Made by a program: the position numbers and the translations under genes. The notes beneath the pieces were generated by a model. The model saw only the letters and a program-made list of their open reading frames with translations, had not been told where the DNA came from and ran no database searches. A DNA stretch of 64,000 nt from an uncultured Chloroflexia bacterium (GTDB taxonomy: Bacteria > Chloroflexota > Anaerolineae > Anaerolineales > Villigracilaceae): NCBI GenBank assembly GCA_963809585.1, contig CAWEKL010000002.1, positions 46,050 through 110,049 of the forward strand, given 5' to 3'. Positions 8,945 to 37,749 of the stretch are shown here, in pieces; within the stretch, counting starts at the first letter, position 1, and every line of letters starts with the position of its first letter.

Positions 8945-9628
8945 CTAAGGTACCACCGGGGGCTCCGTTGCCGTAGGTTCTGGCGTATTCGTATCCGGTG
9001 GGACCGGCGTATCGGGAGTAGGCGTATTCGTATCCGGTGGGACCGGCGTATCGGGATCGGCGTATTCGTATCTGGCAAGGGCGTATTTGTGTCCGGCACC
9101 GGAGTATTTGTTGGCCTCGGAGTATTCGTCGGCCTCGGTGTACTGGTCGGCAGCGGAGGTATTCGTCGGCAGCGGAGTATTCGTCGGTTTGGGGGTGGAT
9201 GTTGTCGGTTCGCCGGGGTGGCTGTTGGGACGGGTGTTCGCGAGGGAGGCACCGGACTGGTAGTCGGACTGGGTTGACGTCCTCTTATCGCGCGGGGTGG
9301 GCGTGTAGGTGCCAAACGGCGTCCGGGTCGGCGTCATGAAGGCTGTCGGCGTGAAGGTGGCCCTGGGGGTATTGGTCGGGAAAACGATATCGGTGGCGAT
9401 CTGGACGAACTGCGCCGAAAATGGCGCCTGGTCTGTCGCGAACGGGTTCGCCTGCCCGGTGGGTGTCGCGAACCCCCCGCCGCTCACCGGGATGATCTCC
9501 GCCGCCTGGGCCTCTTTCCCTGAATAATCGCCGTACACGTAATAGGAAATAAAATAAGGCAGGCAGAGCCCAAGAGCAACCGCCAGGACAGCTCCCATTA
9601 GCAGTTCGTATTTTCTGATTCTCAGCAT
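8945..9628 (-). CDS. Membrane-anchored Pro/Thr-rich repeat protein
   Basis: N-terminal TM is LLMGAVLAVALGLCLPYFISYYV, with RBS GGAAGGAG. The C-terminal half is built of (P)TNTP / PDTNTP repeats. Between about 9060 and 9180 the PT repeat continues only in another frame (PTSTPRPTNTPRPTNTPVPDTNTPLPDTNTPIP). This suggests two compensating indels. Confidence 0.55.
   Translation of the reverse strand: MLRIRKYELLMGAVLAVALGLCLPYFISYYVYGDYSGKEAQAAEIIPVSGGGFATPTGQANPFATDQAPFSAQFVQIATDIVFPTNTPRATFTPTAFMTPTRTPFGTYTPTPRDKRTSTQSDYQSGASLANTRPNSHPGEPTTSTPKPTNTPLPTNTSAADQYTEADEYSEANKYSGAGHKYALARYEYADPDTPVPPDTNTPTPDTPVPPDTNTPEPTATEPPVVP
8982..9059. repeat. 39-bp perfect-core tandem duplication inside the PT-rich gene
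   Basis: GGCGTATTCGTATCCGGTGGGACCGGCGTATCGGGA occurs at 8982-9017 and again at 9021-9056. Degenerate GGxGTATTCGT units continue to about 9190. Confidence 0.85.
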
Positions 9629-13180: not shown

Positions 13181-13383
13181 ATTGGAGGTCAGCTTGCGAG
13201 ACGTGACGTCGAAGCAACTCCTGTTTCTCTATTCTATAAAGGAGGCTCGAATGAAACCTGTGGTCCGTATCAACTGCATCTTCTGGAATGAAGGCCCTCT
13301 TCTTCCTCGCGCCTCCTCCCCCGCCGCCGATTCCGGGTAGCCCCCGCTCTCCAGCTTTTAATCCTTTACCTTCTGAGGTCCGA

Positions 13384-15922
<2,539 letters not shown>

Positions 15923-16586: not shown

Positions 16587-19500
16587 TTAATTTCCATCCG
16601 GCCACTGGCTGCAGGTCTTTCGATAGGCAGCGCCCGGGAAGAACTCCAGCCACTCCGCCTGGCTGAGATTGCGCCCGGCGATTTCACAGGCACGTCCGGC
16701 CAGGGATACTGGATCGGTGTTCCACAGGATGATGGTATGGTCGTCGCTGGCTGAGGCCAGCATCTTCCCCTCCGGGCCGAAGGTGAGGTCATTTACCGCA
16801 GCTGTGTGTCCCAGAAGTGAAGTAATCTGTCTCGGTGCAGCAGGGTCGGAGATGTCCCAAAGCACGATCGTCTTGTCGCCGCCAGTGGAAGCCAGCGTCC
16901 TGCCGTCGGGGCTGGCAGTCACGTCGAACACCGGTCCGGTATGCCCACTGAGGGTCGAAAGTTGGCGGGGATTGGAGCTGTCCTTCACGTCCCACAGGAT
17001 CACGTGGGTATCCGCGCTGCCCGAGGCCAGCACCGTCCCATTTTGGGCAAAAGCCAGACTGTAGACCTCGAGCGTGTGACCCGTCAGCACGGATAATTTT
17101 CGCGGCGCGGATGGATCGCTGACATCCCACAGGATAATCGAATGGTCCGCGCTCCCGGAGGCGAGCGTCTTCCCGTCAGGGCTGAAGGCCAGGCTGTTCA
17201 CAAAACCCGTATGCCCGTCGAGCTCCGCGATCCGATGCGGTGTGGTCGGATCTGCGATGTCCCAAAGGATTATTTGGTTCGCGTGGTCGCCCGATGCCAA
17301 TATCTTCCCATTCGGGCTGAAGGCCAGGCTCAGCACAGAATCCGAATGACCCTCGAGTACTGATATTTGGCTGGGGGATTCGGGGTCCGAACTGTCCCAA
17401 AGGATGATTTTGTGATCCCCGCCGCCCGAGGCCAGGATGCGCCCATTCAGGCTGTAGGCCAGGCTGAACACCCCCCCGGGGTGGCCATCCACCGAGGCCA
17501 TTCCATACTCCTGCGTGACCTCCGGGATGGAGGCATCCCGCAGCGTGATCGCTCCGCTGTAACCTCCGGAGGCAACGGTCTTTCCATCCGGGCTGAGCGC
17601 CAGTCTTGTGATCCCCTCGTTGGGATCTATGAAATTACCAAGTTCGCGGGGCGAGTTTTGATTTATGACATGCCACAGGATGATCCGCTCGTCACCGCCC
17701 GCCGAGGCGAGGGTAAGGCTGTCCGGGCTGAAGGCAAGGCTGTACACCACTGCCGAATGGCCCGTGAGCTGCTTGAACGACCCCCAGTTCGATTGATCCC
17801 ACAGGATGATCGTATTATCCTCACTGCCTGAGGCCAGAATGGTACCGTTTGGGCTGAACGCCACGCTGCTGACCGCATCGGTATGGCGCGAAGGCAGGGG
17901 AGACAGTTCTGTAAGCTCCGACCCGCCCGGTGCCGTAAATGTAAATGTATCCACCATATTGTCGATGCCCGCAGCCAGTTCTTCTCCATCCGGGCTGAAT
18001 GCGAGGCTGTAGATAATGAGACCCTGGGTTTGTGTGGTCGGAAGCGGGGAAAATACTCCGGGTATCAGCACATTCCCCGTCGTGACCGGCAAAGATTGCA
18101 GTTGTTTCGGCGAGCCGGGATCCGAAACATCCCATAAAATGATGGTTTGATCATCGCCTCCGGAAACGAGCAGCGGCCGTTTGGGGTTAAAGGCCAGGCT
18201 GCGTACCCGGATCTTGTGTCCTCTAAGCGTCGTCAAGAGACGCGCTGCCGCCCGGTCCGACACATCCCAGAGCAGGATATCGCCGCCTTCACCACCCGCC
18301 GCCAGCAGGTTTCCATCGGAACTGAAGGCCACAGTATAAATAGAACCTGGATAGCCGGTCAGCCGGGCGAATTGGACTGGGGATTTCGGATCGGAGATGT
18401 CCCACAGGATGACCGTCTTGTCATTGCTCCCCGAGGCAAGTGTTTTCCCGTCCGGACTGATGGCCAGGCTCGTGACCCAGTTCTCATGTCCATTCAAGGT
18501 GGCAAGTTGGTGCGGCGCGTTCGGGTCGTGCATATCCCACAGGATGATCGACCGGTCATGGCCCCCCGAGGCGAGCAACGATCCCATCCGGGCTGAACGC
18601 CACCGCGCGCACCGGCCCCGAATGTCCCGCCAGGAAACGGTCGAGGTACGGGGTGGAGAGCGTCCCGAAGAGACTGCTGCGGGTCTGTGCGCTGTCCTGC
18701 TGGCGGAAGGCCTCCACGCTGAGCAGCAGCGAAAGGTCCAGTTTCTTGTCGAAATAATACAGCGCCTGCGCCGAAAGCTGCCCGGCGCGCGCCAGCACTG
18801 CCTGCCGCCGGGCCTGTGCCGCTTGCGACAGCCCGAAGATCGCCAGCGCCAGCATTACAACCGAAACCGCGACCGAGGCAATCACCACCGCCAGCCTGCG
18901 GCGCTCGACCGCGGCCTGCTCGCGTTTTTGCAGCGCCTCACAGGCGTTGAGGTAATCTTGTTCCTCTTCGTTCAGGCTGAAGCGCGACCCCTTGCTCAAC
19001 TGGACCGCGTCTTCCAGCCGCCGGCCGCGATGCACCAGCAGGTTCTCATCCTTATTGGCGGCTTGCCATTCCAGCGCGGCCTCCCGCAGCCCCTCGCGCA
19101 CCCGCAGCCCGGCGCGGTCCTCCTCCAGCCAGTCCCGCAGGCGCGGCCAGTGGCGGATCAGTGCCTCGTGGGCCACCTCCACTTCATCCTCGCCCGTGAC
19201 CGGGTTCACGCTCGTCACTGCCAGGCGCGCGTCCGCCAGATGCTGAACCAGCGCCAGCGTGGCAGCCTCATCTCCGCCTGCCGGGACCAACTCCTTGAAG
19301 CGCACCCGCCGCCGCGTATCCCGTCTCTCGCCGCTGGCGGTCTCGTCGTCCAGCCGGGTGAGCCGCAGGAAAATATCCCGCATGCGCTCCTTCCCGTCCG
19401 CGGAAAGCCCGGCATAGACCTCCTCGGCCGTATGAGCGATGGCCTGCTGGACCCCTCCGATGGCGCGGTATTCGGCCGCGCGCAGCCAGCGCCCGTGACG

Positions 19501-21484
19501 CCGTTCCCAGAGCAGCAGGAGGGCATGCTGCAGCAGCGGCATCGCTCCAGGCTCCCCCTGCACATCATCCAGGATGGTCTGGGGCAGGTCGGCCTCAAAG
19601 CGCAGCCCCACGTGCACGGCCTGCTGCTCCATGGCCGAGCGCAGCTCGGCAGCATCCATCGGTGCCACCAATTCCTGGTGCGCCTGCATCTCCTCCTTCA
19701 GCGACTCGTACGCAGCCACCTCCCCCCAGAAGTCGGCGCGCATGGTGAGCACGACCGGCTGTTTCTCCTTTAACTGGAGCAGGCGCTCGATGAAATTCCG
19801 GCGCTTGGTTTCCTCCACCGTCAGCGTGAACAACTCTTCGAACTGGTCCGCAACAATGATCTGATCCCCGGAATGCAGCGCGGAATCAAGCTGGCTCAGC
19901 GGGTCGGTCCCCGGCGTCAGGTAGGCCGACTCCCGGTTGAGCGCGGGGACCAGCCCGGCCATCACCAGCGAGGATTTGCCGCTGCCGGAAGGCCCGAGCA
20001 CGGCCAGGAATGGGTGGTCCTTGATGCGCTCCGCCAGTTTTGCGATCAGCGCCTCCCGCCCCATGAAAGAACTCCCGGTCTTCGGTCCGGAACGGGTAGA
20101 GGCCGCGGAAGGGACAGCGCGCGTCATAAGCCGGAGGCGTCTGCCCCATTGCCAGCGCGTTGAAGGACAGGTCACAGACCTCCAGGGAGGTCTGGTTGAG
20201 GGCGGTCAGGGCAGCATCAAAATCCGCGCGCGTCGCCCCGCTGAGCGTGGCGCTGTCCGCCTGGAGGCCCGGTTGGAGGCGGGCTGCCTGGGCTTCAAAG
20301 TCCGGCAGGAGCACAGGAGCCCGCACCTGCATCAGGCTTCTCATCGTCTCCACCCCAAACTTGATCTCCTCGGAGGTCAGCGGGCGGTTGAGGGATTCAG
20401 AGAACAGGGGCTGCCCGCCCAGGCGGCTGAAGAGCGCCGGGACGGTGACGTCCTCCTTGCCCTGCAGGCCGGCGAAGGCCTCGCCCAGCGCCCGATCCAC
20501 CTCGCCGTGCTCCCGCAGGCGGGCATAGAAGGTGGCGGCCAGTTCCCCTGCAGTGTTGATGCTGATGCGGTCGGTCATGGCCAGCACCGCCGGCATGCCC
20601 AGCTCGCGCACCAATCTCTGCCCCAGGCCGCCCAGCCCGTTCTCCGCCTCGGGCAGAGCCGAGGCGCAGGTGGAGAGGAAGGTGAAATGCGGCAGCTGGT
20701 CCAGCCGTCCCAGGCGCGTGATCAGTTCCGTGCCGGTGACAGGGCTCCCGTCCCCATCCTTTGGAAAGTACAGGGCGGTTTCCCCCTTGCTGCTGATGTA
20801 TTTCCCATGACAGACGATATGCAGCAGGGTCGGGCGCAGGCTCGTGATCTGCGCGCATAGTTCATCCAGCGTTGCCTTTCCCGCGGCCCCGGCGACCGAT
20901 CCCAGCACCGTGCAGGGGATCTCCCCCAGCGCAGCGCGGACGCTGGCGGCCGTGGCCTCCCGGTCGAAGGATTCCAATCCGTAGTCCCCACCCATGTCCT
21001 CGGGGCCCGCCACCAGCAGGATCGCCCGCAGGTCGCGGCGGCCGAAGGGCGCAAAGCGCCGCTCGATCTGGCTGGGGAGGTACAGGGAGAACGGGGTCTG
21101 CTGGCTGAGCAGGAGATAATCCCAGCCGCGGTCGAAGCGCGCACACAACCGTTCCCAGTGCAGCCCGCGGCAGGTCTTCCGCCTCTACGTTGAGCAGGAC
21201 GCGCAGGGCCTCGTTGTCCGTTCGGGCCTCCGCCACCGCGCGCACGAAGGCGTCCTGGATCTCCTCATGGAAGATCGCCTTTCCCAGCGCCTGGCCGTAC
21301 TGCTGTTCAGCATTCGCGGCCGCGTCCAGCGAGGCAAGGTCGAGCTCGAACGTCCCCGAGCTCCACAAGGCCAGGCTGCCCTCGCCGCGCTCATGGCATA
21401 CCGAGACCGGCCAGGTCGGCCCGGCCTTGCGCTCAATGGTGATCTCAAAGGTATTCAGTCTCTTAACCTCCCGCGGCCATCCAT
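16587..21484 (-). CDS. Giant CHAT (caspase-like) protease - STAND P-loop NTPase - TM - WD40 (about 14 repeats) protein; 3 or more apparent frameshifts; 5' end uncertain
   Basis: The CHAT dyad context is LLHIVCHGKY and FLSTCASAL (ORF 19886-21148). The STAND entry motif is CPFRGLYPFRTEDREFFHG/REALIAKL, with Walker A LAVLGPSGSGKSS and VEVAHEALIRHWPRLRDWLEED (ORF 18556-20175). The TM is LAVVIASVAVSVVMLALAIFGL. About 14 repeats of the type GHxxxVxSxAFSPDG...SGSxDxTIILWD fill ORF 16587-18587. Fragments abut with continuous homology near 18590, 20060 and 21160. Confidence 0.85.
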
Positions 21485-25381: not shown

Positions 25382-25854
25382 GGGAAGGAGGGAACCCTCA
25401 AGAACCACACTTCGGCTGATGAATTGCATTATGAAACAATGAGGATCAATTCCGATTCCCGGGCTTGAGAAGGGCTTTTTACGGGTAAGCCGGCGACCCT
25501 GCTCGCCTGATTGAATTGTTGTTTTGTTCATTTTTGCCCCGTTTTTTTGCGTTTTTCCGCAAAATATGGATGCCGGAACAATCAAGAACAATTATCCGCT
25601 CAATCGAGAGGGTAGCTCCGGCGCTCCGTGCGCCGCACCTTCGCATCTCCTTCGCTTCGCTCGCTTCGCTCGGAGTGCTACGCAATGCTCGGTGTGCTTC
25701 GCGAGAGCGGGCGATACGGGTGCTTCGGATGCTCGCGAATGCCCGCTCGCCCGCCGGAACAATTGCAACAATTCGAAGCTGAGAAAAGAATCGCTATTCG
25801 AGAAAATAGGGAGTCGAGCCAGGAGGTAAGTTTCGAGATCCAAGTCGAGGATGA

Positions 25855-25946
25855 AAAATCACAAAATTCAAAGTCCACCGCTATGCGGATACCGGAAAGG
25901 GGAATGGAGGTGAGGAGAGAAAATTGATCCTGACAAGATTTGCATC
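25855..25946 (-). ncRNA. Candidate short divergent transcript (copy A); hypothetical
   Basis: Predicted from the minus-strand promoter at 25953-25981. It has a CU-rich body (CTCTCCTCACCTCCATTCCCCTTTCC) and a small hairpin CCGC-ATA-GCGG (25878-25888), then a U-rich tract (complement of 25853-25874). Confidence 0.25.
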
Positions 25947-25952
25947 GATGCA

Positions 25953-25981
25953 AGTATATAGAATATATGTTCCAGAGTCAA
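25953..25981 (-). promoter_or_regulatory. Near-consensus sigma70-type promoter on the minus strand (copy A)
   Basis: The minus strand reads TTGACT (complement of 25976-25981), a 17-nt spacer, then TATACT (complement of 25953-25958). The same architecture is conserved at 35164-35192. Confidence 0.5.
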
Positions 25982-26171
25982 CCGATGAGCAAAAAACGCA
26001 TCCCGGCACGGGATGACTTCCTGGTGACATTCTTCCCTTCCCGGAAGCGCCTGGGATTTGCTACACTCAATGTACCGCTCGCAGGTGGGGAGTAGGAACT
26101 TGCCCCGGGTTATAGACGGATGGCGTTGGAGGTGGAATGGAAATGACGCAAAAAGAGGAGACCTCCGGTCG
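25955..26171 (+). repeat. Conserved leader element, copy A (217 nt)
   Basis: About 90% identical to 35166-35382, with only 2 mismatches across the roughly 105-nt core GGGATTTGCTACAC...GACGCAAAA. The 3' 150 nt are also homologous to 26570-26723. It ends in GGAGGTGGAATGGAAATGACGCAAAAAGAGGAGACC. Confidence 0.85.
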
Positions 26172-26238
26172 TGGCCCCTCTGCTGTCGCCTTCGGGGTGT
26201 TGCGCGAGCGGCGGGGTCGGGAGACTGCGGAGGTTTAA

Positions 26239-26532
26239 ATGGCAGAGAAAATCATGAATTTGATTTTTATATTTAACTTCATCCTTTTAATTGGATTGGT
26301 AGTAGGGATTATGTGGTGGCAACAAAAATATGGCAGACTAACCGCAAATAAATTTGCGGTTTTGCTAACCGGATATTTTAGCTTTGCGTTCATAACCACT
26401 TTATCACCATTTTTGATCACCAATACAAGCATAACTATTACAGTTGATATCGTTTTTATATTGATATTGTGGTGCATTGGATTCCCTTGGTTACGCTGGG
26501 TATATAGCAAATTCAGTTCATCAAAACAGTGA
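26239..26532 (+). CDS. Small AT-rich-encoded integral membrane protein (97 aa, about 3 TM)
   Basis: MAEKIMNLIFIFNFILLIGLVVGIMWW...VDIVFILILWCIGFPWL. The local G+C is under 40% by hand count. The ATG directly follows the TAA of the leader mini-ORF. Confidence 0.55.
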   Translation: MAEKIMNLIFIFNFILLIGLVVGIMWWQQKYGRLTANKFAVLLTGYFSFAFITTLSPFLITNTSITITVDIVFILILWCIGFPWLRWVYSKFSSSKQ

Positions 26533-26569
26533 TCGCTCCTCCAGCAAAAAGACGAACCAGACTGAAAAC

Positions 26570-26723
26570 AGTCAAACTTCCTGGTGATATTCTTCCCTTC
26601 CGGGAAGGGCCGGGATTTGCTACACTGACGGTACCGTTCGCGGGCGGAGTTGGATCGCCGCGGTAATAGGGAGGGTGTCGGAGGTGGAATGGGAATGACG
26701 CAAAAAGAGGAGACCTTGCGGTC
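26570..26723 (+). repeat. Conserved leader element, copy B (3' 150-nt portion only, no promoter segment)
   Basis: ACTTCCTGGTGATATTCTTCCCTTCC...GGGATTTGCTACAC...GGAGGTGGAATGGGAATGACGCAAAAAGAGGAGACCTTGCGGTC aligns with copies A and C. It sits between the 97-aa ORF and the hydrolase gene. Confidence 0.8.
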
Positions 26724-26760
26724 AAAAAAACGGCCAGGTCGATCCTGGGAGCATCAAGCC

Positions 26761-27846
26761 ATGAAGATCTCATTCTTCAAACAATTACTGTGGTTAGGCA
26801 TGCTAGCTGCTTTTTTGTCCAGCAGTTGCTCTCTGGCCCAACCGACATTGGCAGCCCGCCTTTCCGGATACATGAAAACGGAGCAGCCAAACTTCAGCGG
26901 GACCATTCTTGTGGCGCAAAAAGGCGAAATCATCCTCAGCCAGGGATACGGTTTGGCAAATCAGGAATGGGATATCTCCAATACCTCACAAACCAAGTTT
27001 GCCATTGGATCGATGACCAAGGCATTTACAGCCATGGCCATTATGATATTGCAAGAGCGAGGCCAGTTGTCTGTGCAGGATTCGATCTGCGATTACTTGT
27101 CTGATTGTCCAGCGGACTGGAAGTCCATTTCCCTGCATGATCTTCTTACTCATACGTCCGGTATTCGTAACTATACAGATCTATACACCCAACTAAAAGA
27201 CAATGTTAATATTTGTCGTGAATACAGGCCGGAAGAGGTCGTTGCCTTCTTCAAAGACCTGCCCCTCGACTTTGAACCCGGCAGTAGTTGGAATTACAGC
27301 AATTCAGGATATTTCCTACTGGGGATTGTGATCGAAAAGGTGTCCGGCGAAAGCTATGAGACCTTTATTCAAAAGAACATATTGCAGCCATTAGGCATGT
27401 CCGAGACAGGCTACGATCGTGCAAGTACAGTTGTCAAAGATCGAGCTTCAGGATATTCGTGGAATGGTCGTATTCTCAATGCAGTTTGTGAGGACGTATC
27501 GATCAAGTACGCGGCTGGTGGGCTATATTCCACCGTTGGAGATTTATACAAGTGGGATCAAGCACTGTATACCGATCAATTGGTTTCCAAAGAAACTTTG
27601 AACATGATATTTAATTCCACTATGCCCATGCAGCCTGGTGGAGACATGTATGGCTACGGATGGATAATTTCCAAACACTTTGATCGTCTGGTGATTGAGC
27701 ACAGTGGGGGCCTTTTTGGGTTTGCCACCCAAATTGCGCGCTATCCGGATGATCAAGTAACAATCATTGTCTTATCGAATACGGACTTTCAAGACCCCGT
27801 GGCGATTAGTGTGAAATTAGCGGGCATCGTGTTTGAAGGCAAGTAA
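26761..27846 (+). CDS. Serine hydrolase, beta-lactamase / PBP4*-type family, secreted
   Basis: The signal peptide is MKISFFKQLLWLGMLAAFLSSSCSLA. The SxxK active site is FAIGSMTKAF, with a downstream YSNSGY motif. The region is AT-rich relative to its flanks. The ORF-track start at 26650 lies inside leader copy B, and the leader ATG at 26689 is in frame. Confidence 0.85.
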   Translation: MKISFFKQLLWLGMLAAFLSSSCSLAQPTLAARLSGYMKTEQPNFSGTILVAQKGEIILSQGYGLANQEWDISNTSQTKFAIGSMTKAFTAMAIMILQERGQLSVQDSICDYLSDCPADWKSISLHDLLTHTSGIRNYTDLYTQLKDNVNICREYRPEEVVAFFKDLPLDFEPGSSWNYSNSGYFLLGIVIEKVSGESYETFIQKNILQPLGMSETGYDRASTVVKDRASGYSWNGRILNAVCEDVSIKYAAGGLYSTVGDLYKWDQALYTDQLVSKETLNMIFNSTMPMQPGGDMYGYGWIISKHFDRLVIEHSGGLFGFATQIARYPDDQVTIIVLSNTDFQDPVAISVKLAGIVFEGK

Positions 27847-28052
27847 TGAACAGTTCAGTCAACACGGAGAGCCCCCAGCTGGTGGGACTCGCCGTGTTTT
27901 CAAGCAGTTGCGTTGCGGATTGGCTGCCGGTCTTCATCGAGACGACAAGTGCAAGATATAAGCTTTTAGCCTGCTACTTCGGAAGTAAAGATCGTCTGCT
28001 GGTATCATTCCATCCTGGGCCAGTGACCTGCCCCAATAGTATGTACCAGAGT

Positions 28053-28372
28053 TTATGTTAGTCCAGACCACACCAGAGGCGACACAAACCAAGCTTGGGG
28101 TGCCGGGGGACGATATCCCATTGAGCTGTGCGGTCGAATTGTATTATATTTCTTTCTCCAGCGTTCGATCATCTGTGCCTGCGGCAAGGTGCAGGCAAGA
28201 TCCAGGCTTCCTGCAGAGTGTAGAAGATCTCCCGTTTCAACAATTCATACCGCCTGTATGCCACCCTTGCCGAGGTTTCAGATCCTGAAATCCTAAAGCG
28301 CATTGAAGAGATCAGCAATCCCTGAAATTGATCTGGCTTTATTTCACGGTCACTGCGTGCAGCGAGCCGCAA
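28053..28372 (-). pseudogene. Remnant of the C-terminal end of an IS3-like (rve/DDE integrase-fold) transposase
   Basis: The minus strand reads ...YELLKREIFYTLQEAWIL.. and, after a frame break, AQMIERWRKKYNTIRPHSSMGYRPPAPQAW. This is the canonical ...EIFYTLxEAxxLIExWRxxYNTxRPHSSLGYRPPAP tail. No catalytic core, N-terminal part or inverted repeats were found. Confidence 0.7.
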
Positions 28373-31346: not shown

Positions 31347-31556
31347 ATGAAAAAATTCATCCAGGTATGTTTGGTCGCGGCCCTGCTGCTCGTGCTCGTA
31401 CTCGGCACCGTCCCGATGTTGAAGATCGGCGGGGGTCTGCCGGGTCCCCAGCCGAATGTCGGCTGGAACACCGGTATCGGGTGGGAGACTCCCGATGCAG
31501 CCCCGCTCGCATTCACCATCATTGTCATCAGGCCGGACGTCGGTTGGAATACTTAA
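31347..31556 (+). CDS. Small exported peptide with three (V/I)GW(N/E)T motifs (69 aa)
   Basis: MKKFIQVCLVAALLLVLVLGTVPML is signal-like, followed by GGGLPGPQPNVGWNTGIGWETPDAAPLAFTIIVIRPDVGWNT and a stop. AGGGAG lies upstream of the ATG. Confidence 0.5.
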   Translation: MKKFIQVCLVAALLLVLVLGTVPMLKIGGGLPGPQPNVGWNTGIGWETPDAAPLAFTIIVIRPDVGWNT

Positions 31557-31601: not shown

Positions 31602-31727
31602 ATGATTGAACATCTGTTGATCCAGGCAATTCCATTGGCGGTCTGCCTTCTCTTGACGATACTGATCGCTCTGCACCAGGGCAAAACCGGGACGCCCACC
31701 TATCTTGCCAGTGTTGGCTGGCACTAA
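31602..31727 (+). CDS. Small hydrophobic peptide ending in SVGWH (41 aa), below the ORF-track cutoff
   Basis: MIEHLLIQAIPLAVCLLLTILIALHQGKTGTPTYLASVGWH. AAGGGG lies 7 nt upstream of the ATG. It shares the C-terminal VGW motif with the preceding ORF. Confidence 0.35.
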   Translation: MIEHLLIQAIPLAVCLLLTILIALHQGKTGTPTYLASVGWH

Positions 31728-34758: not shown

Positions 34759-35074
34759 GACAATAAACTGCACCACCTAAAACCTTCCCTGAAGTCCCTC
34801 CACAACTGGATCGTATCGCTTCGGCTGTTTCTTCCTGTTGTTATAATCCCAGTGTGCCTCTCATCCTTTCGATCTCCATCGTCAGCCAGTGCCGGCTGGC
34901 CCTGGAAGAACGCCACTCCCTCCGCAATACGTCGAGAGTTCTCCACGAGGGTGCTCTCGCGAATGGCTCTCGGGGCCACTTTGCCCGCTCGGCCGCCGGA
35001 ACAATTGATAACAAATAGGGAGCGGAAACCAACGATCAAAGAATAGAGCGCAGCGAGCCAGGAGCCTATCGAAG

Positions 35075-35157
35075 AAAAGAGGTAGAAATCAAGCACCCCG
35101 GCCAAGTTTGGACGGGGTGGCATGAGCCTGGAAGGGGAAAGAGGTCCTGATATCACA
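35075..35157 (-). ncRNA. Candidate short divergent transcript (copy C); hypothetical
   Basis: It lies downstream of the minus-strand promoter at 35164-35192. It has a CU-rich 5' part (CTCTTTCCCCTTCC), then hairpin CACCCCG-N12-CGGGGTG (35094-35119) followed by CTTGATTTCTACCTCTTTTCTT on the minus strand. Confidence 0.3.
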
Positions 35158-35163
35158 GAGGAT

Positions 35164-35192
35164 ATTGTATAGAATATATGTTCTGGAGTCAA
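35164..35192 (-). promoter_or_regulatory. Near-consensus sigma70-type promoter on the minus strand (copy C)
   Basis: The minus strand reads TTGACT (complement of 35187-35192), a 17-nt spacer, then TACAAT (complement of 35164-35169). Confidence 0.5.
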
Positions 35193-35382
35193 GCGATGAG
35201 CAATGAGGGGGGACCCGGCACCGGATGACTTCCCAGTGACATTCTTCCCTTCCCGGCACGCCTGGGATTTGCTACACTCAATGTACCGCTCGCAGGTGGG
35301 GAGTTGGAACTTGCCCCGGGTTATAGACGGATGGCGTTGGAGGTGGAATGGGAATGACGCAAAAGGGGAGACCTTGCGGTCG
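35166..35382 (+). repeat. Conserved leader element, copy C (217 nt)
   Basis: See copy A; same orientation. It ends in GGAGGTGGAATGGGAATGACGCAAAAGGGGAGACCTTGCGGTCG, with a 1-nt deletion relative to A and B inside the mini-ORF. Confidence 0.85.
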
Positions 35383-35519
35383 CGAAAACGGCCCGGTCGG
35401 GCCCCTTACGCTACGCTCGCTTCGCTCGGGGTGCTAAACGCGAAGACCCGGGCCGAGCGAGGGCGTAGCAATTGATCTAGAGTAGTACTAGGTACACGTC
35501 CATAATTTGAGGTTTGACA

Positions 35520-35723
35520 ATGAAAAAATGGTTCACTCCCCGAATAATTATTATTGGTTTGTTTTCTTTGATTATAGCGTTAACGACAGCATATGTTGTT
35601 GGCTTGGCAATTTTGAAAATGCCGCTTTGGTATGTTTCCATCATGGCCTGTTTGGTTATTGTATCCGTTTTGGTAGGGATTTTATTAAGCATTTGGATAG
35701 AACAAAAAGGCCGAAGAAGGTGA
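35520..35723 (+). CDS. Small AT-rich-encoded membrane protein (67 aa, 2 TM)
   Basis: MKKWFTPRIIIIGLFSLIIALTTAYVVGLAILKMPLWYVSIMACLVIVSVLVGILLSIWIEQKGRRR. GAGG lies upstream. The local G+C is clearly below that of the flanks. Confidence 0.5.
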   Translation: MKKWFTPRIIIIGLFSLIIALTTAYVVGLAILKMPLWYVSIMACLVIVSVLVGILLSIWIEQKGRRR

Positions 35724-35726
35724 AAA

Positions 35727-35912
35727 ATGAGTCCAGACCAATACGCAATGATAATTCTGGCGGTTTGTTGCGTGACACTGGAAATTTCGGGGTTTGTGTT
35801 AATGCGGCTTCGCCAACATCCTTCATTTCCCTTCCTGAGGCAAATTGGGAAAATAATATGCTTGATAAGCCCTATAATCTTTCTTTTAGGCATCGTGGCT
35901 TTCTATATTTGA
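35727..35912 (+). CDS. Small AT-rich-encoded membrane protein (61 aa, 2 TM)
   Basis: MSPDQYAMIILAVCCVTLEISGFVLM...IGKIICLISPIIFLLGIVAFYI. It starts 3 nt after the previous stop, and GAAGGTG lies upstream. Confidence 0.45.
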   Translation: MSPDQYAMIILAVCCVTLEISGFVLMRLRQHPSFPFLRQIGKIICLISPIIFLLGIVAFYI

Positions 35913-36167
35913 CAACAAAGTAAGAATCAAAGCATAACGAATATGGTTGCAGAGCAATGCGGTGTCGGGGCTGTGACGAGCGGAGGATGCCCGCAGGGAG
36001 AAACCTGCGACCACGACCAGGCGCCCCCCTCCTTTCTGCCGGAAGAACACCGGGACGCTGCGCGGCCCCCAAATGCCCTCCGCTGTCGCCTTCGGCGTGC
36101 TTCGCGAGCTTCGGGGACTATGTGCGCCGAGTTATGGATGGGCATGGTTTGGATAGGCGCATTTAGG

Positions 36168-36263
36168 GGGAGACTCGAGGCCAGCGGCAACCAGACGACG
36201 AGGACGATCAATGGGATGACGCTCACATTAGCCTATGATGCGGAGGGGCAGGTCACTCACATT
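36168..36263 (+). pseudogene. Isolated YD/Rhs-repeat-like fragment
   Basis: GRLEASGNQTTRTINGMTLTLAYDAEGQVTHI resembles one YD repeat (G-x-L...Y-x-YDA-x-G-x). There is no flanking Rhs core and no credible start. Confidence 0.3.
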
Positions 36264-36291
36264 CTCCCGCTGTATAACTACTATTCCTCGA

Positions 36292-36459
36292 TTAACTGCT
36301 TGCCGGCAGCTCCCAGAGTTCCACCTTGTTCCCGTCCGGGTCCATAAACCGGCCAAACTTCCCAAATTCGTATTCCTCGATCTCGCCCAGGATCTCAGCG
36401 CCTCCTTCCTGCACGTGCCGGAGCGCCTCTCCCAGATCATCCACGATCAGGTTGAACAT
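36292..36459 (-). CDS. Truncated VOC (glyoxalase/bleomycin-resistance fold) half-domain, 55 aa
   Basis: MFNLIVDDLGEALRHVQEGGAEILGEIEEYEFGKFGRFMDPDGNKVELWELPASS matches the C-terminal beta-alpha-beta-beta-beta module of VOC proteins. GGAGGAG precedes the ATG. It is below the ORF-track cutoff. Confidence 0.5.
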   Translation of the reverse strand: MFNLIVDDLGEALRHVQEGGAEILGEIEEYEFGKFGRFMDPDGNKVELWELPASS

Positions 36460-36498
36460 GTGGTCTCCTCCAGACGCACGATGCGCTGAAAGATCTTC

Positions 36499-37509
36499 TC
36501 AAGGCATCCTCAGCGTACTGCCCATCAAAATCCCATTCGCCCAGTAGTACCCCGTAGCCCCTTCGGGCAGCAGATCATAAGTCGCTGATCCTTGATAAGG
36601 GATCCGTTCCACCAGCGTAATGTGTGCGCCGTCCAGCCTCTCACCCACCCGCAACGCCCCCAGCCAGCGACCGTCCGCAGTCGGGTGCCCCGGCGAGGCC
36701 CACAGCTCGCGCCCATCGCTCAACCGGATATGGACCACCTGATGTGTGGACGGAACCCTCACACTTCCGAACTTCAAGATTTTCCCAACCACCTTCTCCC
36801 CCGCCGCGTTCATCGTCCAGACTAAATCCCCCATATGCAAATCTTCCACCGGCTCGGCGCCGCGCGGTGTGTCGATGAGCGTCCCTGCCGCCAGACAGAT
36901 GGGACAGGTGAGAAACCCGGGGCTACGTTCCTGCACGTCGATGGAGCCGCGGCCATCTATCGTCCCCTTGACCACAACTCCCTGGCCGCCTTCCTGCCCG
37001 GTCTGGATCTGGAACTGATACACCACGCCTGCCGGCTCAAAATTAACCGCATTCAGCTTCTTATGCTCCCGATAGATCAGCAATTTCTGGTCATCGGTGA
37101 AAGTTGTCAACCCGCTCAGCCCGGTATGACTTAAGACCGCCTGAAATTCCTCCTGATCGGCCTGCAATTCCGGGAAGCGCTCCCGAGCCAGTGACATCTC
37201 ATCATCCCGAGCGACCGGGTAGAAATCAGGATCGCAGAAAAAGAAATCGGGGAATTGCTCAAGCACTTTGTATTTCAATTCGCTGAGCGAGAGTGCTGCC
37301 AAGGGGAGCGTGGGGATGGCGGTTGGCGGTTCCGGCGTCAGAAAGGGGACTTCCGTTCCAGCCGGAAGCACTGTGCCGGCAATCGCTGTGCTGGCCACGC
37401 CGGTCATGACGATGGGAGTGGAACCCCCTCCCCCTTCCCGGGGCAGGATCGGTGCGCACGCACCGAGGAACAGCGCAAACAGGATGGTCAATTCGCCAAA
37501 TCTTCTCAT
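36499..37509 (-). CDS. Lipoprotein with C-terminal Hint (Hedgehog/intein) domain
   Basis: The start at 37509 (MRRFGELTILFALFLGAC, lipobox LGAC) is preceded by AGGAGG. The Hint module begins CLAAGTLIDTPRGAEPVEDLHMGDLVWT and ends ..YDLLPEGATGYYWANGILMGS. Nothing follows the Hint domain. Confidence 0.8.
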   Translation of the reverse strand: MRRFGELTILFALFLGACAPILPREGGGGSTPIVMTGVASTAIAGTVLPAGTEVPFLTPEPPTAIPTLPLAALSLSELKYKVLEQFPDFFFCDPDFYPVARDDEMSLARERFPELQADQEEFQAVLSHTGLSGLTTFTDDQKLLIYREHKKLNAVNFEPAGVVYQFQIQTGQEGGQGVVVKGTIDGRGSIDVQERSPGFLTCPICLAAGTLIDTPRGAEPVEDLHMGDLVWTMNAAGEKVVGKILKFGSVRVPSTHQVVHIRLSDGRELWASPGHPTADGRWLGALRVGERLDGAHITLVERIPYQGSATYDLLPEGATGYYWANGILMGSTLRMP

Positions 37510-37749
37510 ACCAGCCTCCTGATCTTGACTGAGGACTTTCAAACGGGCTCCAGTGTTCCCCTGGCTCAAAAAGTATCGCGCCTTTGCCTTAATCATTGAT
37601 AAAAGAAGGCGCCCTCCGCTCCATTCTGCGGTGCTCCAATCTCCCATGATCCCGTCCCCTAGTCACTCGTCCCTCTTCCCTTCCCTTCAAATTGGATTAA
37701 AATCCCCCCGTCCGGTCCCATTGGGATCTTATCCGTACAAGGAGCCGCC

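Follow-up and report, generated by a model that had tools for sequence, protein, structure and literature searches.

Three copies of one non-coding leader before unrelated low-G+C genes in an Anaerolineales genome: a possible re-used promoter and translation-start module

Introduction

Putative mobile promoters, as described by Matus-Garcia, Nijveen, and van Passel (2012; commentary PMC3575422), are highly similar upstream sequences found before non-homologous genes, the definition being 80% or more identity across a length of 50 nucleotides (nt) or more upstream of genes with non-homologous coding sequences. A 64,000-nt stretch of contig CAWEKL010000002.1 (positions 46,050 to 110,049 of the forward strand, assembly GCA_963809585.1), which came from an uncultured Chloroflexia bacterium of the Anaerolineales family Villigracilaceae and is called the window below, held three direct copies (A, B, and C) of one non-coding leader, each about 150 to 220 nt long and all in one shared orientation, before genes of low guanine-plus-cytosine (G+C) content, called cargo below. 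The leader belonged with putative mobile promoters by that definition, with 90% identity over 217 nt between A and C, 83% over 156 nt between B and A, and 81.5% over 173 nt between B and C, the cargo proteins being unrelated. The favoured explanation, to which we give a probability of roughly 45%, is that A, B, and C are paralogues of one lineage-specific promoter/5' untranslated region (UTR)/translation-start module that was re-used before low-G+C genes. Re-use of a promoter or leader before unrelated genes is a known kind of phenomenon.

Like putative mobile promoters, the leader was associated with no known mobile element and with no Rfam family, and its function may be that of a promoter or post-transcriptional. 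It was unlike them in three respects: (i) the repeat ran through the Shine-Dalgarno (SD) sequence, the start codons, and a leader open reading frame (ORF), right up to the cargo; (ii) one cargo was demonstrably foreign and was joined 10-12 nt before its ATG; and (iii) one copy, without the promoter part, lay inside an operon-like arrangement.

The integron platform consists of the Pc promoter, attI, and the short frame ORF-11, which enhances the translation of cassettes that have no initiation region of their own. The present module would resemble it as a fixed upstream unit giving transcription and short-ORF ribosome delivery to promoterless acquired ORFs whose start lies a few bases past the join; unlike an integron, it was itself repeated three times in place of one platform with a cassette array, and the join positions differed. 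A cassette system had been one proposal of an earlier reading of the window made from its letters alone (the sequence-only reading), and in the integron sense this proposal failed. An attC site is an imperfect palindrome with RYYYAAC at one end and GTTRRRY at the other; no such core pair, at a spacing of 40-150 nt, was present on either strand of five intergenic stretches. A crude motif scan in all six frames of the window found no tyrosine-recombinase (IntI) box I, together with one chance box II-like string within a WD40-type repeat gene (16587-18854), and Pfam scans of neighbouring ORFs, covering part of the window ORFs, gave no integrase besides a transposase remnant.

Leader-peptide control and translational coupling are exemplified by the erm and cat attenuators and by secM-secA. 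Copy A was like these in having a short ORF that overlapped the 5' arm of a hairpin predicted to sequester the downstream SD and whose stop abutted the next start; in contrast to these systems, the arrangement did not extend to B, which had a fusion, or to C, which had a separate SD, and the best-conserved part was the untranslated region upstream of the ORF, not the hairpin. We know of no arrest motif in the leader ORF. Like Correia elements, enterobacterial repetitive intergenic consensus (ERIC) sequences, and REPINs, which are short intergenic repeats that may carry promoters, are co-transcribed with their neighbours, and may form RNA structures, the leader was short and intergenic; unlike them, it lacked inverted ends and target duplications, was present in very few copies, and kept strictly to one orientation before ORFs. 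Like riboswitches and other Rfam leaders, it offered a conserved segment of ~120 nt upstream of the SD with a possible SD-occluding pairing, and unlike them it had no model match, no stable shared fold, unrelated cargo functions, and no phylogenetic spread.

Three direct copies of the leader

BLAST and nhmmer within the window both recovered the three direct copies reported by the sequence-only reading, and the repeat was far above chance expectation: A and C were 89.9% identical (217 nt, E 3e-76), and B matched A (83%, 156 nt) and C (81.5%, 173 nt) with E values in the range 5e-34 to 2e-34. The copies and their blocks were arranged as follows:

25955-26171, plus strand: copy A
26569-26741, plus strand: copy B, without promoter-proximal block (core 26575-26688, SD 26680-26687, ATGs at 26689 and 26695)
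35166-35399, plus strand: copy C (promoter-proximal block 35166-35203, core 35227-35347, SD 35339-35346, ATGs at 35348 and 35354)
25955-25992, plus strand: promoter-proximal block of A, with 89% identity to C and no counterpart in B, AT-rich, with TAGAAT on the plus strand
25993-26015, plus strand: variable hairpin 5' of ACUUCC in A, CATCCCG-GCA-CGGGATG, 58% A/C identity, sequence not conserved
26560-26573, plus strand: variable hairpin 5' of ACUUCC in B, GACTG-AAAA-CAGTC, by direct reading of the sequence
26016-26136, plus strand: core leader of A with ACTTCC, TTCTTCCCTTCC, GGGATTTGCTACAC, hairpin 26087-26106, and SD GGAGGTGG at 26128-26135; 95% identical to C, 80% to B
26030 (26030-26041 in A), 26590, and 35242, plus strand: CU tract TTCTTCCCTTCC in A, B, and C
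26053 (26053-26066 in A), 26612, and 35264, plus strand: block GGGATTTGCTACAC in A, B, and C
26087-26106, plus strand: hairpin GGGG-N12-CCCC of A, the same in C
26644-26661, plus strand: hairpin GCGG-N10-CCGC of B
26128, 26680, and 35339, plus strand: block GGAGGTGGAATGGRAATGACGC in A, B, and C

All blocks listed by the sequence-only reading recurred in identical order in A, B, and C, and every copy ended with the SD GGAGGTGG, ATG-GRA-ATG, and then a short ORF reading MxMTQKEET... Two of its details needed correction: (i) of the element ends, the borders of A were kept, but B/C similarity ran 18 bases further, so that B ended at 26741 and C at 35399; and (ii) the A and C cores differed at 3 positions in 108 nt (26094, 26141, and 26154), not at 2. 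The variable hairpin 5' of ACUUCC was weak in C. The G+C of the leader was 0.53-0.57.

A hidden Markov model built from the three copies detected (with nhmmer) no fourth full copy in the window; it matched only in part at 36076-36116 (a fragment of 41 nt) and, more weakly, near 25641-25686. Two stray pieces of the duplicated unit were thus recorded:

36076-36116, plus strand: 41-nt piece downstream of cargo C, 85% identical to the 3' half of the leader ORF of A (26176-26216)
25649-25680, plus strand: piece upstream of A in which the C-type sequence 35404-35436 recurred with 91% identity

Mosaic conservation of the duplicated unit

The homology between A and C reached beyond the 217-nt element and covered ~600 nt overall (~25627/34853 to ~26233/35469). 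It took in ~330 nt upstream (25627-25954 versus 34853-35165) and ~75-100 nt downstream, both at merely 52-55% identity, and the upstream local alignment had a score of 102 versus a shuffle maximum of 54. The two upstream regions were as follows:

25627-25954, plus strand: upstream region of unit A, ~55% identical to 34853-35165, with the 26-nt block TGCCCGCTCGCCCGCCGGAACAATTG (25740-25765) and GC-rich GCTCGCTTCGC repeats
34853-35165, plus strand: upstream region of unit C, homologous to 25627-25954 and holding TGCCCGCTCGGCCGCCGGAACAATTG (34982-35007)

Along the unit, A/C identity was 55% in the upstream ~330 nt, 89% in the promoter-proximal block (38 nt), 58% in the hairpin segment (23 nt), 95% in the core leader (121 nt), 89% in the first nine leader-ORF codons, and 52% in the remaining leader ORF, while identity between B and A was 80% for the core and 96% for the first nine leader-ORF codons. 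Since conserved blocks were thus set within diverged flanks and separated by a variable segment, block-specific constraint fits better than one recent duplication or conversion tract. Gene conversion may nevertheless be compatible with the A/C core likeness, B being far more diverged than A and C were mutually. B showed no significant similarity to the promoter-proximal block, its alignment being no better than shuffles, and a degenerate promoter block in B was ruled out by this shuffle-level score; that B was without the promoter part and lay between two plus-strand ORFs, as had been proposed, was borne out by the alignment.

The motif GCCGGAACAAT-N4/5-AACAA(T) was present on the plus strand at 25573 and 25754 upstream of A and at 34996 upstream of C, with an inverted version at ~25510-25530, upstream of A. 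It could be a candidate protein-binding or recombination site.

Leader ORF and translation start

The N-terminus of the leader ORF read M-E/G-M-T-Q-K-E-E-T..., and its geometry differed from copy to copy. In B, the reading frame was shared with the hydrolase of cargo B, the leader ATG at 26695 being in frame; in A and C, the ORF was placed as follows:

26137-26238, plus strand: leader ORF of A, 33 codons (MEMTQKEETSGRGPSAVAFGVLRERRGRETAEV), its TAA (26236-26238) abutting the ATG of cargo A at 26239
35348-35437, plus strand: leader ORF of C as read, running to TGA 35473-35475 if a 1-nt deletion near 35366 is restored

The single-base deletion in C (CAAAAGGGG versus CAAAAAGAGG) shifted the frame. 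The TGA of the restored ORF sat exactly on the GC-to-AT junction before cargo C, and the other A/C indels downstream of the start summed to 9 nt, so that the frame was kept if this one deletion is set aside. The frameshift may be an assembly error. In the same window, leuS (13255-15922, plus strand) was split over at least two reading frames, with its editing domain at 13731-14882, its catalytic C-part and anticodon domain at 14780-15922, and an apparent extra base near 14786, reflecting either assembly indel errors or a broken essential gene; in view of the leuS frameshift, the one in C is not a safe argument against translation.

The earlier claim that the element does not translate goes too far: no long frame crossed the core and no relatives were found, but the SD, the ATG, and the short ORF were kept in all copies. 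Indels of 1, 2, 2, 3, and 2 nt between A and B broke any long frame through the core. A 90-amino-acid (aa) ORF running through copy C had no relative among 5.8 billion proteins and no match in Pfam, and exact look-ups of the leader peptides and ORFs returned no matches. A conserved 5' gene fragment was not supported, there being no translated similarity to known proteins and the indels breaking the frame.

Cargo genes and their joins

G+C was 0.34 in cargo A, 0.47 in cargo B, and 0.38 in cargo C, compared with 0.61 in the window as a whole, and these values together with the family searches agreed with the claim of low-G+C, unrelated cargo after every copy. The genes and their surroundings were as follows:

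26239-26532, plus strand: cargo A, 97 aa with three hydrophobic segments, G+C 0.34, of a small family of ~90-100 aa
26751-27900, plus strand: cargo B unit with 10 nt of native 5' UTR, hydrolase ORF 26761-27846, and terminator-like hairpin 27880-27900
28053-28372, minus strand: C-terminal remnant of an insertion sequence (IS) 3-type transposase (rve_3, E 3e-9), stop-interrupted, ~150 nt beyond cargo B and before the histidine kinase gene
35400-35475, plus strand: GC-rich long hairpin after C, weakly homologous to the 3' half of the leader ORF of A, ending at the GC-to-AT junction (CAATTGAT)
35520-35723 (67 aa) and 35727-35912 (61 aa), plus strand: cargo C, two ORFs with two hydrophobic segments each, the first with its own GAGG SD

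Cargo A had homologues in 31 cluster representatives (best E 2e-23), and, because these alignments began at residues 1-4, 26239 is supported as its true start; it matched no Pfam, NCBIfam, or PHROG family. Cargo C (overall G+C ~0.38 over 35520-35912) had no family matches for either ORF in Pfam or other protein family searches. The sequence CAATTGAT at 35471 marked the GC-to-AT junction preceding cargo C.

Cargo B belonged to PF00144 (E 5e-65) and was a lipoprotein serine hydrolase of the class C beta-lactamase/AmpH-like family, with the lipobox-like signal MKISFF...SSC at its N-terminus. Its closest relative, P0003 (83% aa identity), was encoded on a 1.8-kb JGI metagenome contig, L035, with a G+C of 47%. 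L035 and cargo B shared 90% nt identity from 26751 (10 nt before the ATG) past the stop, to ~27900, the match reaching a common terminator-like hairpin at ~27880-27900 after a short insertion, whereas the window sequence upstream of 26751 was unrelated to L035. This one-sided match shows that cargo B arrived recently, by horizontal transfer, from a lower-G+C organism. It also mapped the join, and thereby upheld the claim of a modular leader joined to unrelated cargo: cargo B was joined to leader B 10-12 nt before the start codon, the join creating GGGAG just upstream. For cargo A and C, low G+C suggests a foreign origin of the kind seen directly in cargo B. The three joins were of different types, namely (i) stop/start contact TAA|ATG in A, (ii) in-frame fusion in B, and (iii) a gap of 44-82 nt followed by an own SD in C.

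The public protein P0002 (383 aa), annotated for the cargo B hydrolase, starts at MTQKEET inside leader B (window position 26695), and all cargo B homologues start at the MK... signal peptide, corresponding to 26761. The annotation thus probably places the start 22 codons too far upstream, the proper start being MKISFF, unless the fusion is truly translated.

Promoter signals

A sigma-70 consensus scan of the plus strand called a promoter in C only (CTGATA-17-TAGAAT, 9/12) and none in A. Better matches lay on the minus strand and pointed into the poorly conserved upstream regions:

25981..25953, minus strand: TTGACT-17-TATACT, near-consensus, left edge of copy A
35192..35164, minus strand: TTGACT-17-TACAAT, near-consensus, left edge of copy C

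A six-frame comparison of the upstream regions of A and C found no conserved minus-strand ORF, and a conserved protein on that strand was thereby ruled out. The AT-rich block may be bidirectional, and the plus-strand promoter remains a putative one.

A possible re-used expression module

In this reading, the module would begin with a promoter-proximal block in A and C, B being without it, and continue with a 5' leader of ~120 nt, the strong SD GGAGGTGG, two ATGs, and a short leader ORF. It is placed directly before low-G+C genes whose products are membrane or secreted proteins, on either side of a block of histidine kinase, LuxR, and GGDEF-HD genes. It would supply a transcript and a ribosome loading site to promoterless or poorly initiating foreign ORFs, in three ways: (i) in copy A, translation of the leader ORF would melt the hairpin that buries the SD of cargo A, which amounts to translational coupling; (ii) in copy B, the leader ATG would act through its in-frame fusion with the lipoprotein ORF; and (iii) in copy C, the leader ORF would end 44-82 nt ahead of a cargo with its own SD. 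The SD/start region is complementary both to ACUUCC and to the CU-rich tract upstream of it, and the module may therefore inhibit itself and be opened by a signal or factor. Plus-strand transcription, coupling, and anti-SD control are what we infer for the three copies.

The computed folds bear on these steps. In C, the minimum-energy fold brought the CU tract into pairing with the SD/start region. The post-leader hairpin of A had a predicted energy of -41.4 kcal/mol (z -1.44), its 5' arm was the 3' half of the leader ORF, and CCUCC (26162-26166) paired with the cargo SD GGAGG (26229-26233). The fold after C (35385-35530; -52 kcal/mol, z -2.17) was more stable than shuffled sequence and ended at the junction, only a weak 5-bp outer helix reaching the SD of cargo C. 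On these predictions the post-leader segments appear more convincing as structures than the cores. The inter-ORF copy B did not fold as one long hairpin.

The module reading is supported by the repeat with its constant block order, the mosaic A/C identity, the foreign origin of cargo B and the leader ATG in frame with it, the stop/start contact at cargo A, the A/C indel sum of 9 nt, the post-leader hairpins, the predicted anti-SD pairings, the gene order that relatives keep without a leader in the available flanks (described below), and the precedent of putative mobile promoters. Several observations weigh against it: (i) the best promoter match in A and C lay on the minus strand (10/12) and faced away from the leader, the plus strand being weak by consensus; (ii) the leader ORF of C was frameshifted as read; (iii) the plus-strand cores folded no more stably than shuffled sequences (z +1.40, -0.35, and +0.78); (iv) B was 20% diverged in the core where A and C were 95% identical, so that constraint was uneven; (v) the three copies all lay within 10 kb and none was found elsewhere, so that conservation could reflect gene conversion and not function; and (vi) the joins differed (coupling, fusion, and separate SD), so that no single mechanism is conserved.

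Distribution, genomic context, and a possible relic

The exact two-block pattern of the leader had 2 matches, both by chance, among 185,579 GTDB representative genomes; a 19-base SD/start pattern had 32 matches in JGI metagenomes, each limited to the pattern itself; two patterns had no match in IMG/VR; and blastn of the leader gave no match among plasmids and phages. Neither nhmmer nor blastn found the leader in 11 loci (9 around GGDEF-HD orthologues with 63-77% aa identity and 3 around hydrolase homologues). The BLASTN and nhmmer search of related genomes suggested by the sequence-only reading thus gave no further copies, either in the closest-relative flanks or in the outside collections searched.

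The stretch between B and C was occupied by a block of histidine kinase, LuxR regulator, small-peptide, and GGDEF-HD genes. The block recurred at nine loci of Anaerolineales-type assemblies and metagenomes with a G+C of 0.60-0.62, which makes that group the most likely one for the host. Its gene order was kept in every relative locus long enough to show it, and its nt identity was 77-82% in the two closest loci (L037 and L038) and 72-78% in L039. In the short flanks available from these relatives, no leader, GC-rich hairpin piece, or GGAACAATTG block was found, and other neighbours were present there. Since the relatives keep the block without the leader in the available flanks, the leader-cargo loci sit exactly at both synteny breaks.

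Two small ORFs within the block (31347-31553 and 31602-31724, plus strand), between the LuxR regulator and GGDEF-HD genes, were conserved in the relatives (counterpart regions L037 6768-7239 and L038 6018-6464), and their peptides repeated VGWNTG or ended in VGWH. They may be candidate precursors of modified peptides. A gene for a subtilisin-like S8 peptidase came next in L037, L039, L040, L041, and L042 and was missing in the window and in L038.

The same breaks are also what would be expected if a promoter/5' region of ~600 nt had been segmentally duplicated in a recombination-prone, decaying region, its core later homogenised by conversion, and its downstream parts replaced by insertions, leaving a functionless relic whose place before the present genes would be fortuitous. 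We regard this as unlikely. Gene debris lay nearby (the transposase remnant, a weak RHS-repeat fragment, and the stray 41-nt and 33-nt pieces of the unit), the synteny with relatives broke on both sides of the histidine kinase/LuxR/GGDEF-HD block exactly at the leader loci, a near-identical A/C core beside a B diverged by 20% is the pattern left by conversion between two of three copies, and no copies were found outside the 10-kb stretch, either in the rest of the window or in the collections searched. A single conversion tract, however, does not fit the 23-nt segment of 58% identity that interrupted the conserved blocks; the SD, the ATGs, and the first 9 codons were nearly unchanged in all three copies (A/B 96%); and intact plus-strand ORFs followed directly after all three, one with a precise stop/start overlap and one in frame.

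Predicted folds of the leader

An Rfam 15 scan of the whole window found two tRNAs only, no covariance model reaching its gathering score on the leader, in keeping with the earlier statement that the element belongs to no named RNA family, and a scan of 25500-26850 with E up to 10 gave only noise matches, none of them meaningful on the leader core. A tRNA- or tmRNA-like element was likewise rejected, ARAGORN finding only two tRNA-Ala genes, elsewhere in the window. A minus-strand RNA was ruled out as well, since that strand folded no better (z +0.85 to +0.92) and the minus-strand promoter match faced away from the core.

In the consensus fold of the core, ACUUCC paired with GGAGGU and extended into a long closing helix with a few compensatory changes. 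Helices 1-3 comprised 36 pairs, of which 26 were invariant, 3 were changed on both sides, and 4 were broken in B, counted over three sequences with A and C near-identical and a structure taken from the same alignment; one of the 3 two-sided pairs was a G-U / A-U / G-C series of one-sided changes. As there are two effectively independent sequences and the structure came from the same alignment, covariation is not establishable and the pair statistics are circular. The covariation proposed earlier for the core hairpin stood to the extent that the swap of GGGG/CCCC for GCGG/CCGC was real, but it amounted to one compensatory pair in one independent comparison. The minimum-energy structures of the three cores differed from one another, and a structured cis-regulatory RNA, the first proposal of the sequence-only reading, was not demonstrated, with cores that folded differently and a stability at shuffle level.

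It is nonetheless conceivable, if rather unlikely, that the ~120-nt core senses a ligand or binds a protein and thereby opens or closes the SD/start region, a candidate binder being a CsrA-like factor with GGA as its recognition motif, both in the conserved hairpin loop AGUWGGA and at the SD. Within a duplicated unit that was otherwise much more diverged, conservation was highest in the core; besides the closing helix ACUUCC/GGAGGU, the 3 two-sided pairs of helices 1-3 (one being the one-sided series), and the real stem swap, hairpins of unrelated sequence occupied an equal position 5' of ACUUCC in A and B, and by direct reading the core held eight GGA motifs, of which one lay in a hairpin loop and several overlapped the SD and ATG. 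Opposed to this were the lack of any Rfam match even at E up to 10, the different minimum-energy folds of A, B, and C with plus-strand z values from -0.35 to +1.4, the circularity of testing a structure on its own alignment with two effectively independent sequences, the four pairs broken in B, the competition of helix 32-36/97-101 and the GGGG/CCCC-type hairpin for the same bases, and the failure to find homologues for a covariation test.

Mobile element, capture platform, or peptide

A non-autonomous mobile element or IS end that carried promoters and was inserted upstream of genes, in the manner of Correia elements, ERIC, or miniature inverted-repeat transposable elements (MITEs), is an improbable source of the three copies. 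The size of 150-220 nt fits such elements, which are known to carry promoters (PMC3575422), near-consensus outward promoter matches on the minus strand lay at the left edge of A and C, and a transposase remnant was nearby; but an inverted-repeat search and direct reading found neither terminal inverted repeats at the ends nor target-site duplications, and the A/C homology faded gradually on both sides without sharp ends. Moreover, there were three copies in the window and none in plasmid, phage, IMG/VR, GTDB-representative, or JGI collections, and the orientation to the downstream ORF was identical in all three. A MITE or IS end as such was not supported, given the missing inverted ends and unsharp homology borders.

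A far-reaching version of the module reading would make it a dedicated, self-propagating 'plug-in' platform of a Chloroflexi lineage that captures foreign genes having no promoter, joining them a few bases ahead of the start codon, without integrase or attC, and places them under common post-transcriptional control by anti-SD pairing relieved by a signal or RNA-binding protein; we consider this very improbable.

Least probable of all is a small Arg-rich peptide of ~33-43 aa (MxMTQKEET-LRSKKRPGR-...GVL...) as the product behind an ordinary 5' UTR, since, although the ORF was present in all copies, the A/C indels kept its frame, 3 of the 6 nt differences that separated B from frame-corrected C over the ten codons following ETL were synonymous third-position changes by direct reading, and frameshift damage occurred elsewhere in the assembly (leuS), the untranslated core was better conserved than the ORF body (95% versus 52%), the B ORF had no stop of its own and ran into the hydrolase, A was without six codons present in B and C, no related peptide or ORF existed among 5.8 billion proteins, and by our estimate a 40-codon open frame at 67-69% G+C is expected by chance about 1 time in 3.

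Other features of the window

Downstream of cargo C, the debris at 35936-36460 contained one RHS/YD-like repeat at ~36150-36350 (E 0.021, below the cutoff), the minus strand of 36292-36459 read like the C-terminus of a glyoxalase/VOC protein (...FMDPDGNKVELWE) by direct reading, and a Hint-domain protein was encoded beyond it at 36499-37647 (minus strand). A minus-strand cluster at 16587-21184 encoded a CHAT protease-like protein (19886-21184), an nSTAND1 NTPase (18556-20205), and a WD40-type repeat protein (16587-18854) with at least 10 repeats of 135 nt, and it looks like a STAND-type conflict or signalling system. A GC-rich stretch at 8982-9196 carried tandem 18-nt and 39-nt repeats (GTATTCGTCGGCCTCGGAGT-like) and is probably a repetitive coding segment.

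Implications

Should the three copies be a duplicated relic, their importance would go little beyond annotation, namely a hydrolase start at MKISFF and not at MTQKEET. Should the re-used promoter/leader/start module be functional, it would give a mappable example of how AT-rich foreign genes are expressed in a high-G+C bacterium by one unit placed repeatedly before them, the junction being handled differently each time (by coupling, by fusion in frame, or through a separate SD). The join at cargo B is dated by its 90% nt identity to a donor-like sequence, which would make it a recent event that is open to experiment.

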